A DNA stretch of 64,000 bases, taken from sequence record NC_050153.1; one strand, written 5' to 3'. This document shows, in pieces, positions 7,003-63,404 of the stretch (the first letter of the stretch is position 1; every line of letters begins with the position of its first letter). The position numbers and the translations under genes were made by a program. A model generated the notes under the pieces. That model made no database searches and was not told the origin of the DNA. It was given only the letters and a program-made list of their open reading frames with translations. Source of the stretch: Escherichia phage vB_EcoM-Ro157c2YLVW.

Positions 7003-7423
7003 CCTGTGCGAGATTTATTACGTAACTTCTGCGGATTTGCTGAGTAACAGGGAAAATCCGATACAACGGGTTAATGAACGAGTCGCCATGCGTAACCATG
7101 ACGTTGAAATGCCACAGTCGCTCTCCTTTACCCATATATTCAGTGGGTATGTACAACCATTCACTGTTTTCGCCCTGTTCAGCCGACGTCAAACAACGTT
7201 GTTCGCCTTCAATCACTGTCGTCGGCTTCTGAACATCGCGGATCCAATATCTGACTGTTGCGCCGCGCAAAAACGGGAATTTAGACCGGTATTTGAACGG
7301 CACCCGGATGAAACCCGGTTTAATTTCCACATCACCAAGTTCTAAATGCGTGATGTCCTTGCGTTTTAGCAAATAGCGATCGGCTAAGGCTAACGCAAGA
7401 ACGCATACACCCCAGCCAATCAT
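6980..7423 (-). CDS. LydB-like protein (putative antiholin/lysis regulator)
   Basis: 147-aa ORF immediately downstream of and overlapping the holin gene; position-based call. Confidence 0.45.
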   Translation of the reverse strand: MIGWGVCVLALALADRYLLKRKDITHLELGDVEIKPGFIRVPFKYRSKFPFLRGATVRYWIRDVQKPTTVIEGEQRCLTSAEQGENSEWLYIPTEYMGKGERLWHFNVMVTHGDSFINPLYRIFPVTQQIRRSYVINLAQDVSDDEK

Positions 7424-7749
7424 TTCCCGCCTCCCTTTTTCACCAAACTTGTAAGAACATTCAGAATGCTATCGATATTCACTCGTTTCATCCCTGAAAT
7501 CACCTCATGACCGTTATTGCTGGCTATCGTTACCATTAAGTACGTAATTGATAACTCCCAGCCCTCGTGTTGCCCCAATAGGTACGCCACCGCGCCAGCT
7601 GTCACTGCAACAAAGATCTCCGTAACCAATCCCAACAAATTGCCAGACTGGCGACCGTCTCGGACATCCATCAGGAACGTGCCTATCCCACCAATTACTG
7701 AAAGCAGGAGCGCAATAGCAACTGGAGCTAATTCCTGTGTGTCAAGCAC
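7420..7749 (-). CDS. lydA: holin (LydA-like), three predicted transmembrane segments
   Basis: 109-aa ORF, GTG start with GGAGGG RBS; hydrophobic stretches LAPVAIALLLSVIGGIGTFLM, IFVAVTAGAVAYLLG, LSITYLMVTIA; charged C-terminus. Confidence 0.6.
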   Translation of the reverse strand: MLDTQELAPVAIALLLSVIGGIGTFLMDVRDGRQSGNLLGLVTEIFVAVTAGAVAYLLGQHEGWELSITYLMVTIASNNGHEVISGMKRVNIDSILNVLTSLVKKGGGK

Positions 7750-12992: not shown

Positions 12993-13042
12993 GATTTTCC
13001 CTAATCACTGTTGTGAAGCCTCATTGTAAGAGAAGTAACTTG

Positions 13043-13068
13043 TCACCCCGCCCTGCGGACGGGGTGAT
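13043..13068 (-). other. GC hairpin between baseplate and tail-fibre genes
   Basis: TCACCCCG ... CGGGGTGA inverted repeat. Confidence 0.35.
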
Positions 13069-21275: not shown

Positions 21276-21309
21276 TTAACCGATTCTACGAGTAGTCATT
21301 TGTGACAGG

Positions 21310-30369: not shown

Positions 30370-32076
30370 TTACTCAGAGTCACCGGCATCAATCGTGTCG
30401 CCGCTTATGAAGTTAAGCCCGCCTTTTTTGGCCATTGTCAGCGTTACACGAGTGAAGTAATCAGCGCCGTTGCGTGGGTGCATATCGTTGATAGCCGAAC
30501 CCCACAGTGTGGTACGGTTGACCAGCGCCGGAGTGGTCGGATGCTGGAACGGGATAGCCGGGACAGCATCACCAGTCACGAAGCCTGCTTTACCCGGATT
30601 TTCATCACGGACGTAGCACAGCACATCCATCGAGCTGAACTGAATGTTCTCTGTCGTTAAGTTCTTACAAATACCAGCAGGTACTTCGTACACTTTCACG
30701 TTACCGAACAGGGTACCGATGTAGTGAACATACGGAGTCTGGATATAGTCTTCGGCTGGCTGGAAGAAATCCTTCGGCAACTGTTTGAAGAAAGATGCTG
30801 CATCAGCACCAGCAAACATCCCCATCGCACCAGAAGATTTAACGCGCTCAATAATGTCGCGATATACAGTCTGGAATTTGCCACGAATGATGGTTGCCCA
30901 TACATTAAAGGACTGGTTAACCGGCAGAGCGATGTCAAAGGTGTCGGTCGCAAGAGTACGCCAGATCATGATGCGAAGACGCAGCATATCCTGTTCATGA
31001 GACAGGTATTCCTTCAGGGTGCGGAACTGTAGGGAACCCAGGTCCAGACCAAATTCACGCTGTGCTTCATACGCCGCCTGTACCGTGTGCTCAGCCGCGA
31101 TAACGAACTGACTTGGGAACAGGGTGTATTTCTTCATTTCGTGGTTGATCAGCGGGATCAGCTCAGGTGCGGCTTCAATATTGATTTCCGTCTCAATTGC
31201 GATCTCAGTGCCTTTATCCGGCGCTTTGGAGAACGACAGGGCAATCTGACCAATGTTGTAGTTCAGAGAGCAGGTAACAGTGATTTGCTCACCAGCAGCA
31301 TTAGTAAACGAGTGAAGTAGGCTGCCGGAACCGTTATCAACAACAGACTTAATACGGTTAACGTAGATGTTAGTGCGACCTTTTCGGATTGGTACATTCT
31401 GGCCTTCGAAGTCTTCCATCTTGAAGGTTGCGGTTTTGCTGGTGCCATCGGAGCTTGCCACCAGCACATAGCGGCGACGTAACTGGCTGTACACACCAAC
31501 GGATTGCATGTCCAGAACATCACCAGCAGCATAAGAACCAAAAGAGGAACCTGCCACGTTAAAGACTTCATAGATGTCGGACTGGTCACGCGTAACCGGA
31601 ATGAAGGTACACGCATCAGCGGTAGCTGCCCCCAACTGAACAGGCAGGATCATCGCGAGGAATAAAGGCAGACGCATAACACCGTCAGAAACGCTCATCA
31701 TCTCTGCTGCGACGGATTCCAGCATCGCTTTATTAGTGGCATCCATGCTATTGCGGGTGGACTCAATCAGGCAGTTTTCCAGCGTCTGGTGGCAGGAGGC
31801 CAGAATTTCCGGACGCGGCATAGATTTATGTGCTGCGGCGTAGTCAGCCAGTGCACTTGCCCACGCTGTAGCGATTTGAGCGGTGGCATTATCAGAGATA
31901 CCCGCAAAAACCGGGTCTTTACGTGCAGCTTCAAGGATAGATGCGGCACGCGCGGCATCATCTTTAATGAATTGGTTATCAGTACCGAACTGCGCAGTGC
32001 TTGCCCAGCCAAGCACAGCTTTAGAGCGTTTTGCGATATCTGCAATACGATTCTGGTATTCGCGTAAGTTACTCAA
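30370..32076 (-). CDS. major virion structural protein (major head protein candidate), TTG start
   Basis: No in-frame ATG for ~100 codons; TTG at 32076 sits 6 nt after an AAGGAAGAG RBS. Confidence 0.45.
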   Translation of the reverse strand: MSNLREYQNRIADIAKRSKAVLGWASTAQFGTDNQFIKDDAARAASILEAARKDPVFAGISDNATAQIATAWASALADYAAAHKSMPRPEILASCHQTLENCLIESTRNSMDATNKAMLESVAAEMMSVSDGVMRLPLFLAMILPVQLGAATADACTFIPVTRDQSDIYEVFNVAGSSFGSYAAGDVLDMQSVGVYSQLRRRYVLVASSDGTSKTATFKMEDFEGQNVPIRKGRTNIYVNRIKSVVDNGSGSLLHSFTNAAGEQITVTCSLNYNIGQIALSFSKAPDKGTEIAIETEINIEAAPELIPLINHEMKKYTLFPSQFVIAAEHTVQAAYEAQREFGLDLGSLQFRTLKEYLSHEQDMLRLRIMIWRTLATDTFDIALPVNQSFNVWATIIRGKFQTVYRDIIERVKSSGAMGMFAGADAASFFKQLPKDFFQPAEDYIQTPYVHYIGTLFGNVKVYEVPAGICKNLTTENIQFSSMDVLCYVRDENPGKAGFVTGDAVPAIPFQHPTTPALVNRTTLWGSAINDMHPRNGADYFTRVTLTMAKKGGLNFISGDTIDAGDSE

Positions 32077-32209
32077 TTTACTCTTCCTTAAACACAAGGC
32101 ACTTGTGTGAATCCCTTTTCGGAAGAGATTTTATTGAAAGTCACTTGTTGACTTTCTCGTGACAAGCAATTTTTTTATTTTTTCGGGAGTAGGGGAGGAA
32201 GGTAAAATC

Positions 32210-32300
32210 CAAGGTGAAATCGTGGCGATTTCACCTTGAAATTTTAGATGGATTTACTTTAAAAACAGTAGGTTAATAGTGAAATTTGAATGGCGAAAGT
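32210..32300. promoter_or_regulatory. parS: parS-like partition site
   Basis: Heptamer ATTTCAC boxes in a palindrome GTGAAATCGTGGCGATTTCAC (32214-32234) and a second GTGAAAT...TGGCGA; immediately downstream of parB. Confidence 0.6.
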
Positions 32301-37996: not shown

Positions 37997-38035
37997 GTCT
38001 TCCTCCTGAAGAAAAATTATCAATGAAGTCCTTTG

Positions 38036-38881
38036 TTACCGTGCCGCTTTGTTTAATTCATCAAGAACAGAATCAGGAACCAAAGCGGCGACTGCGCTGG
38101 CTGTGCTGGCCTTATTTGCTGATGCTTCCGCAAGCGCGGTACCGATAGCATGGTTATAAGCAGTTATGGCTACGTTGGCGCTTTCATTCGCTCGTTCATA
38201 CTGCTGTTGTAACGCAGTTGTGGGTGCTGTTGTCTGGTTGAAAACAACCCCAAACTGTTCAGTTGCTACTTTCAGAGATTCAATTTGCTCTTCTGTTAGT
38301 GCTGGTGGGGGAGTGGCAGTGCCGCCGCCTGAACCAGAGCCTGACGAGCTTTCTGAGCCAGTGTTAAGGGCCTGGTTAATCTCCCCCATTGCAGCGACTA
38401 AACTTGATGTATTAAGCGCGTTAACAGCGTCCTCAAGCGATTTAGTAATATTCACATCACCAATGGCAATAGAGATCGGCAGTTCTGAAACTTCTCGCTC
38501 ATTAGCACGGCAGTAAACATCCCAACCAATATCGAGTTGAAGCAGCATTGACAGATCTGCATAACCAGCCAACAGGTCCGCGTGCTTAGTTGCCAGTTCT
38601 CCAATGTTCGTTAAGCCGGTTGTGGTTGTTCTGATCGTTGAAACATAGCTGGTAATAGTGTCGGGATAGACAATTGTATCCAGAATTAATCCGGTCAATT
38701 CTTCTGCAAGCAGTTTTGCTGTGTTAGCACTGTTTCGTGCCGATGTTATGGCACCAGGTGTTTTCATCCCACCGGCGGCGGCCAATTTTTTATATGCGGA
38801 TAACTGGTAGTCTTTTTCCAGCATGATATCTCCTAACTTACCTGAACCAGGCCGTCTCCGGACGCTACGGTAGATCCGCAT
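38036..38881 (-). CDS. hypothetical protein (Thr/Ser/Ala-rich)
   Basis: 281-aa ORF. Confidence 0.45.
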   Translation of the reverse strand: MRIYRSVRRRPGSGKLGDIMLEKDYQLSAYKKLAAAGGMKTPGAITSARNSANTAKLLAEELTGLILDTIVYPDTITSYVSTIRTTTTGLTNIGELATKHADLLAGYADLSMLLQLDIGWDVYCRANEREVSELPISIAIGDVNITKSLEDAVNALNTSSLVAAMGEINQALNTGSESSSGSGSGGGTATPPPALTEEQIESLKVATEQFGVVFNQTTAPTTALQQQYERANESANVAITAYNHAIGTALAEASANKASTASAVAALVPDSVLDELNKAAR

Positions 38882-62378: not shown

Positions 62379-63067
62379 AATTTTCCAAATTTTCTGAGTT
62401 GGTGAATCGTATTTTGTCCAACAACCACAGCCATCGTCGCGATATGGATGTAACGATCGTTGTTCATTCGCCTGGCAGCATTGGTTCAACACCTTCAGTT
62501 GAGGTTCAGTCAATTCACGCTGGTTTTGATTGGGATTCCGGGAAAGTGCTTATTTTCCCATCACAGCCACTGACCACGCTAACACCAGAACAGATTACTG
62601 ATATCACTGATAGTGTGCGCAAAGGTCAGTCTTGGCACGCATATCAGGAATACAAGAAGCATCAAGAGCAGTTGGAAAAATTGTCGATTGAACTGGATGC
62701 CGCAAAACAGCGCATTGCAGAGCTGGATGGTAATCGCACGGCGCTGGCAGTGGAGAATGCCTCAATGAAGCTGTTTATCAGGGGCTGTTGCTACGTGTTT
62801 GATGGCCAGCAGGATGAAATATCTGATGCGTATATCTGCGCAACAGACGGAGGGATGCCGCAAATTCCAGCCACCGACGCTTTCCTGGCTGAAGCTCGGG
62901 CGCAGGGGGTAGAGATGATGCGCGAACACCCATCAATCAAACTTTGCTCTTTGACGCACATATGTGATGAGTTAGCCGCCCAGCTTCGAAAAGGAGAGCT
63001 GCATATGATGTTTGACGCTGGCATTCACATCAAAGGAGAAGAGCATGGAAATAAAACCAGAAGATGA
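62375..63067 (+). CDS. early protein, paralog B
   Basis: AAAGGGGA RBS; segment IPATDAFLAEARAQG. Confidence 0.5.
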   Translation: MKFSKFSELVNRILSNNHSHRRDMDVTIVVHSPGSIGSTPSVEVQSIHAGFDWDSGKVLIFPSQPLTTLTPEQITDITDSVRKGQSWHAYQEYKKHQEQLEKLSIELDAAKQRIAELDGNRTALAVENASMKLFIRGCCYVFDGQQDEISDAYICATDGGMPQIPATDAFLAEARAQGVEMMREHPSIKLCSLTHICDELAAQLRKGELHMMFDAGIHIKGEEHGNKTRR

Positions 63068-63404
63068 GTTAAGTAATATTGTTTTATTTCCGGTAAAAGA
63101 GGATGACCCACGTAATCAGGTTAATTTTCTTTATGAACCATCGGAAAGACCATATTGCCATCATGCCTCTGTCCGGGTTGATGAAAAAGAGCGTCAGGTC
63201 CGCTGTAAAATCTGCGGTGCAGTTGTGGAGCCATTTGACTGGATGCTCTCTGTTGCGAAAAGAGAAACCAGGCTGGCAGATGATGTAAAACTATTGCGCC
63301 AGGAGGAACAGGAAAGGCGAAAAAATATAGAAAAGCTAATTCAGATTGAGCGTAACGCGAAAGCGCGGATACGCAGAGCGACAAAATCCAGAACTGAATA
63401 TTAA
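63045..63404 (+). CDS. zinc-ribbon-containing small protein
   Basis: AAAGGAGA RBS; CHH...CKIC pattern; basic coiled-coil C-terminus. Confidence 0.45.
   Translation: MEIKPEDELSNIVLFPVKEDDPRNQVNFLYEPSERPYCHHASVRVDEKERQVRCKICGAVVEPFDWMLSVAKRETRLADDVKLLRQEEQERRKNIEKLIQIERNAKARIRRATKSRTEY

Follow-up and report, generated by a model that had tools for sequence, protein, structure and literature searches.

In Escherichia coli, the near-cognate codons UUG and GUG start roughly 3% and 14% of the genes, respectively, and are read by the initiator tRNA less efficiently than AUG. Among 49 sampled annotated coding sequences of phage P1, the start codon is ATG in 45, GTG in two and TTG in two, and one of these two TTG starts belongs to the promoterless S' segment. 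In the P1 reference genome NC_005856, gene 23 lies in the order parA - parB - parS - LP23 - gene 23 - gene 22 (tail sheath), and its coding sequence of 1707 nt (57067..58773) has a TTG as first codon. The same gene in phage P7 (AF503408) is annotated identically, with the TTG start, and a re-annotated P1 isolate (OP279344) agrees on this start.

The product of gene 23, the major capsid protein gp23, adopts the HK97 fold, to which a T4-like insertion domain is added, and 775 copies of it build a shell with T = 13 (PMC12810830). Its N-terminus has been described as a built-in scaffold (PMC12810830). Edman sequencing of gp23 from the virion gave SVAAEM, as residues 1-120 are lost through a cleavage at E120|S121 for which Pro is the probable protease (PMC9024508). 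The first 124 residues were unresolved by cryo-EM and are absent from the model (PMC12810830, 2026).

The window analysed here is a stretch of 64,000 nucleotides from Escherichia phage vB_EcoM-Ro157c2YLVW (NC_050153.1), which is identified by its sequence matches as a P1-type (Punavirus) genome. When 2 kb around gene 23 were used as query, P1, P7, SJ46, RCS47 and their relatives were matched at 92-99.6% identity, and the locus shares 99.2% nucleotide identity with NC_005856 over 2 kb, with identical neighbours. The open reading frame at 30370-32097 on the minus strand is assigned to gene 23, encoding the HK97-fold major capsid protein gp23. Its protein is identical to the reference P1 gp23 in 567/568 residues, with N391D as the sole change, and the structure entry PDB 9ukm_A / 9vl4 'Gp23' (568 aa) matches residues 1-568 with E = 0. 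The initial annotation, which had described a major structural gene at this position, was therefore correct, given both the match to the PDB protein and the synteny with P1. At the level of families, the phrog_1014 profile covers residues 2-556 of the 568-aa gp23, and in Pfam no family, including PF07068 (T4-type Gp23), matched the gp23 of the window at E <= 0.1. A precomputed PF07068 match is carried by some homologues of gp23 at 56-62% identity. The kinship in fold of gp23 with the capsid proteins of T4 and HK97 is taken from the published structure (PMC12810830), and not from sequence membership.

Between the window and NC_005856, the coordinates are offset by +23434 in lydA, by +26697 in gene 23 and by +24334 in pmgL. 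These changes mean that the window is about 3.3 kb shorter than the reference from lydA to gene 23, and about 2.4 kb longer from gene 23 to pmgL.

The mechanically defined open reading frame (30370..32097, minus strand) has 575 aa and begins with a TTG at 32097, and the in-frame stop that bounds it upstream is a TAA at 32133. The first in-frame ATG is found at 31821, which is codon 93 of the 575-codon frame and codon 86 (Met86) when counting from a second TTG, at 32076. The absence of ATG from the first ~100 codons, as initially described, holds with respect to the ATG-free run itself, which is however 92 codons long. Likewise, the coordinates 30370-32097 are those of the maximal frame of 575 aa, while the TTG start that was argued for gives a gene of 30370..32076 and 568 aa. 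The candidate start codons and the elements around them are the following, where the duplex energies refer to the pairing of the candidate Shine-Dalgarno (SD) region with the 16S rRNA tail:

32095..32097, minus strand: upstream in-frame TTG (32097), probably unused, start of the mechanical 575-aa frame; AAGGG 15 nt upstream, duplex energy -5.1 kcal/mol
32081..32090, minus strand: putative Shine-Dalgarno sequence TAAGGAAGAG; 7/8 positions match TAAGGAGG, and the AAGGA core is kept in diverged relatives
32074..32076, minus strand: predicted TTG initiation codon of gene 23 (32076), from SD geometry, annotation and conservation; TAAGGAAGAG at 32090-32081 with an aligned spacing of 6 nt, duplex energy -6.1 kcal/mol
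32016, minus strand: GTG; no SD, duplex energy -0.1 kcal/mol
31819..31821, minus strand: first in-frame ATG (31821), internal Met86; no SD, duplex energy +1.1 kcal/mol; the codons upstream of it evolve as coding and are homologous across the family
30370..32076, minus strand: gene 23 coding sequence, gp23 major capsid protein precursor, 568 aa plus stop, by match to P1 gp23

The best duplex energy among the in-frame candidates is that of TTG 32076. This codon is preceded by TAAGGAAG at 32090-32083, with an aligned spacing of 6 nt, and the sequence upstream of it reads T-AAGGAAGAG at 32090-32081, followed by TAAA. TTG 32076 thus combines a start codon with a 16S-complementary SD at the distance of about 5-9 nt that characterizes an SD-dependent site, and the good spacing that had been noticed before this TTG is confirmed by these values. 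The AAGGG that lies 15 nt from TTG 32097 is too distant to act as an SD.

The conservation of this region was evaluated at two evolutionary distances. Close relatives from IMG/VR gave 63 unique haplotypes, across which TTG 32076 is invariant and 4/60 positions upstream of the start vary. Within codons 2-85 of the same haplotypes, the variable sites are distributed as 7/2/23 over codon positions 1/2/3, a bias indicating that these codons are translated in the frame of gene 23. The long ATG-free stretch is, from its pattern of variation and conservation, not a product of chance. At the protein level, homology extends as far as residue 1-2 even when identity is as low as 42%, and the motif R-x-ADI-x-x-R (residues 10-17), together with the remainder of residues 1-85, is conserved in homologues to about 40% identity. 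The alignment of phrog_1014 from residue 2 gives further support to the 568-aa form.

Near-identical P1 relatives from viral contigs are uninformative with respect to the start, and the diverged loci were obtained with a profile query. The homologous first codon in 20 diverged loci is TTG (3), GTG (10) or ATG (7) and nothing else, where these starts were chosen by the reasoning applied to the window, a stop-bounded frame plus an SD, and are not an independent experimental confirmation. Such a restriction to TTG, GTG and ATG is the hallmark of an initiation codon. Many of the 20 loci also have in-frame stops 0-8 codons upstream of the homologous start. By clade, with the identity given for each, the starts are:

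80% clade (L084): TTG, with an in-frame TGA 4 codons upstream
76% clade, Pantoea alvi (L098): TTG
56-69% clade (L087, L105-L108 and L115): ATG; the N-termini MSNKEYQ (Chimaeribacter, ATG start), MSDNKEF and MTDTSEYK align with (M)SNLREYQ of P1
52%, strain B14 (L099): GTG
47%, Xenorhabdus (four loci, L088, L089, L090 and L097): GTG
43-46%, Enterobacter/Pantoea/Citrobacter (L092, L093, L094 and L100): GTG, with a stop 1-5 codons upstream
43%, Buttiauxella (L096): GTG
42%, Rosenbergiella (L095): ATG

An alignment of the leaders of P1 and of the 80% and 76% relatives (L084 and L098) shows that the TTG, the AAGGA core and the box of the late promoter have been preserved.

The upstream region of gene 23 contains two further features:

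32128..32149, minus strand: predicted P1 late (Lpa-dependent) promoter LP23, with the -22 box AACAAGTGACTT and the -10 hexamer TAAAAT (32133-32128)
32077..32121, minus strand: putative 5' leader of about 45 nt, where transcription is assumed to start about 7 nt after the -10 hexamer

Both NC_005856 and P7 carry the annotation 'predicted late promoter LP23', and the 80% relative as well as the 76% one has kept the box. The putative promoter fits the layout of P1 late promoters, which have a -22 box and a -10 hexamer and no -35 element, and the TAA that bounds the reading frame falls within its -10 hexamer. The late-promoter motif (AACAAGTGACTT-N4-TANAAT) has 6 matches in the window versus 0.11 expected, and a scan for the sigma-70 consensus gave no promoter. 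Transcription would start near 32121, 45 nt upstream of the start codon. The leader is A-rich and unstructured, its predicted RNA fold not exceeding that of shuffled sequences in strength (z = 0.11), which indicates that it has no regulatory hairpin; an Rfam search in and near the leader returned no RNA element, only sub-threshold chance matches.

The six copies of the late-promoter motif, all on the minus strand, are located at 13023-13044, 21283-21304, 32128-32149, 38016-38037, 52446-52467 and 54151-54172. The copies that were checked sit just upstream of late genes, namely R, gene 23, ppfA and gene 26 (LP26). The one 'terminator-like' hairpin that the sigma-70 scan reported, at 32208-32240, falls where the P1 record places the parS centromere. 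The parS region of the window (32208-32290, minus strand), between parB and gene 23, has several base differences from P1 near the annotated IHF site, with attaacCTactg and aaatCCAtct in the window and attaacTGactg and aaatTACtct in P1. The window retains an intact ParB box hairpin at 32208-32240.

The N-terminal part of the precursor is defined by the maturation cleavage:

31717..32076, minus strand: N-terminal propeptide (delta/scaffolding domain), codons 1-120, with the cleavage taken from PMC9024508

The maturation site MLE|SVAAEM is present at codons 118-126 of the coding sequence of the window, and E120 is invariant in 35 homologues. In the supplement of the P1 virion proteomics, no N-terminal gp23 peptides are listed. 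Given that residues 1-120 are cleaved and the initiating residue is absent from the particle, N-terminal sequencing or mass spectrometry of the virion protein, a check suggested initially, cannot decide between starts, which means that neither virion proteomics nor N-terminal sequencing can validate the start of gene 23.

Translation could in principle begin at the upstream TTG 32097, giving a precursor of 575 aa either as the sole product or as a second isoform. This codon is the first of start type after the in-frame stop, it is in frame and lies inside the predicted transcript, and one polymorphism in the seven extra codons, which turns TGT into TGC, would leave the residue unchanged. A second polymorphism, which turns the AAA preceding TTG 32076 into AAC, would however be non-synonymous, and TTG 32097 has no SD-like element closer than 15 nt. 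Moreover, the two diverged relatives compared, at 80% and 76% identity, have CTG at the position of TTG 32097, and the first of these has, between the positions of 32097 and 32076, an in-frame TGA and a 1-nt indel, the latter located between the SD and the start and frame-breaking for an upstream reading. The indel in the leader and the loss of the upstream TTG indicate that the seven extra codons are not conserved coding sequence, and the stops found 0-8 codons upstream of the homologous start in most other clades also speak against the 575-aa form, making a start at TTG 32097 highly improbable. A start further downstream, at GTG 32016 (codon 21) or ATG 31821 (Met86), with the sequence upstream left untranslated, would have in its favour that ATG is the commonest start codon, used by 45/49 of the sampled P1 genes. 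Nonetheless, it is barely credible, given that both codons lack an SD (-0.1 and +1.1 kcal/mol), that codons 2-85 vary as coding sequence (7/2/23), and that residues 1-85, including R-x-ADI-x-x-R, are conserved to about 40% identity. A start at Met86 would, in addition, leave a propeptide of just 35 residues before E120|S121. Among the candidates, TTG 32076 appears as the best-supported start, from the annotation, the SD, the comparative data and the loss of the upstream TTG, and it is very probably the initiation codon of gene 23. The choice of TTG 32076 made in the initial annotation is borne out by its agreement with the annotation of P1 and P7, by its being the only candidate with a well-placed SD, by the comparative data and by the loss of TTG 32097 in relatives.

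Accepting TTG 32076 as the start, its weakness may be either neutral drift or a selected regulatory feature of the capsid genes of this family, which might tune the output of capsid and scaffold or couple it to the state of the initiation factors. The capsid gene starts with TTG or GTG in 13/20 diverged loci, which span 42-100% identity, versus ATG in 19/19 for the adjacent downstream sheath gene (P1 gene 22 homologue; all of the 19 loci among L084-L115 where it was readable), and the invariance of the TTG in the 63 haplotypes of the P1 clade is consistent with a selected weak start. The contrast between the two genes looks persistent and specific to the capsid gene. On the other hand, the 20 diverged loci represent about 7-8 independent clades only, ATG has replaced the non-ATG start of the capsid gene at least twice without evident consequence, and the strength of the SD shows no systematic difference between ATG and non-ATG clades. 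For this reason, selection for a weak start is regarded as unlikely, and it is likewise unlikely that non-ATG initiation is a maintained, gene-specific trait of the capsid gene across P1-like phage-plasmids. If this were true, the non-ATG start could limit or time the synthesis of the capsid protein and its built-in scaffold relative to that of the portal, the protease and the Dar proteins.

Taking the gene identity, the geometry of the TTG and its SD, the conserved position of the start and the cleavage site, which were established here or in the cited work, the following sequence of events can be proposed. Late in infection, the Lpa-dependent LP23 (32128-32149, minus strand) would yield an mRNA with an unstructured leader of about 45 nt, on which the 30S subunit would be positioned by TAAGGAAG (32090-32083). 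The near-cognate UUG at 32076 would be read by the initiator fMet-tRNA, and, because of this, the 568-aa precursor would begin with (f)Met and not with Leu; the use of UUG in vivo and the fMet at position 1 are inferred, as is the start of transcription. The first 120 residues would serve as a scaffolding-type propeptide until the prohead protease cuts at E120|S121, after which the gp23 of the virion would carry no trace of the start.

Other non-ATG starts are found in the window, and those that had been pointed out initially can be compared with the P1 reference or with homologues:

7420..7749, minus strand: lydA holin, GTG start at 7749; same extent as the P1 reference coding sequence 30854..31183, with a match to the phrog_1527 holin
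54268..54513, plus strand: pmgL, DksA/TraR-like zinc-finger protein; TTG start equal to the P1 reference start 78602
61390..62091, plus strand: ead/Ea22-like gene; GTG start in a GTGA four-base overlap, after AAGGAGG
62088..62378, plus strand: small gene, phrog_667; GTG start in a GTGA four-base overlap, after AAGGAAG

The GTG proposed for the holin agrees with the reference, in which lydA has the same extent, and the TTG at 54268 proposed for the zinc-finger gene agrees with the annotated start of pmgL. The P1 record flags an alternative start for pmgL, an ATG at codon 12. The longer product is favoured, as the DksA-like profile (phrog_54) covers the TTG form from its residue 5 onwards. The GTG codons at 61390 and 62088 also stand as the best-supported starts of their genes: for the former, a GTG start of this kind has been annotated in its vB_EcoM-813R1 homologue, the latter has a full-length phrog_667 match from residue 1, and family profiles match both products from residue 1. 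The large DNA methyltransferase gene dmt (40466, plus strand) has an annotated GTG start overlapping the end of hrdC, and was absent from the earlier list.

The genes at 61390 and 62088 are part of a lambdoid-type gene block at 60400-63100 (plus strand) that has no counterpart at this position in the P1 reference. The block contains ead/Ea22-like genes, with matches to phrog_368 and phrog_667, and its genes are linked to one another through ATGA/GTGA overlaps. At the DNA level it is best matched by vB_EcoM-813R1, D6, Stx-converting and other lambdoid phages, piecewise and over 23-46% of the query. It looks like a mosaic accessory module of a P1 variant.

The observation of a probable TTG start in gene 23 is correct, already known and ordinary. 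A search of the literature for ribosome profiling of P1 or for a discussion of the TTG start of gene 23 found nothing relevant. The start matters little beyond the quality of the annotation, given that the curated P1 record and the structural work already use it. Nonetheless, neither gene callers nor readers should cut gene 23 back to Met86, since most of the scaffolding propeptide would then be lost.

When compared with known systems, the closest is gene 23 of P1 itself (AF234172 / NC_005856, CDS 57067..58773), which shares the locus between parB/parS and gene 22, and in which the LP23 box, the leader, the TTG start and the 568-aa length are all identical to those of the window. The window is a P1 variant that departs from the reference in accessory regions elsewhere, and nothing in these is relevant to the start of gene 23. 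Capsid proteins of the HK97 gp5 / T5 pb8 type share with gp23 the HK97 fold and an N-terminal delta domain cut by the prohead protease, with a propeptide of about 100-160 residues, so that the mature protein is likewise silent on the start (PMC9024508; PMC12810830). Relative to these, P1 gp23 adds the T4-like insertion domain and the T = 13 shell of 775 copies. With genes that are started by ordinary SD-led UUG or GUG initiation, gene 23 shares a canonical SD, a canonical spacing and the use of one of the standard bacterial start codons, and it likewise interchanges TTG with GTG and ATG among orthologues. Unlike these ordinary non-ATG starts, however, that of gene 23 belongs to a late structural gene of very high expression, in which one would expect ATG to be favoured.
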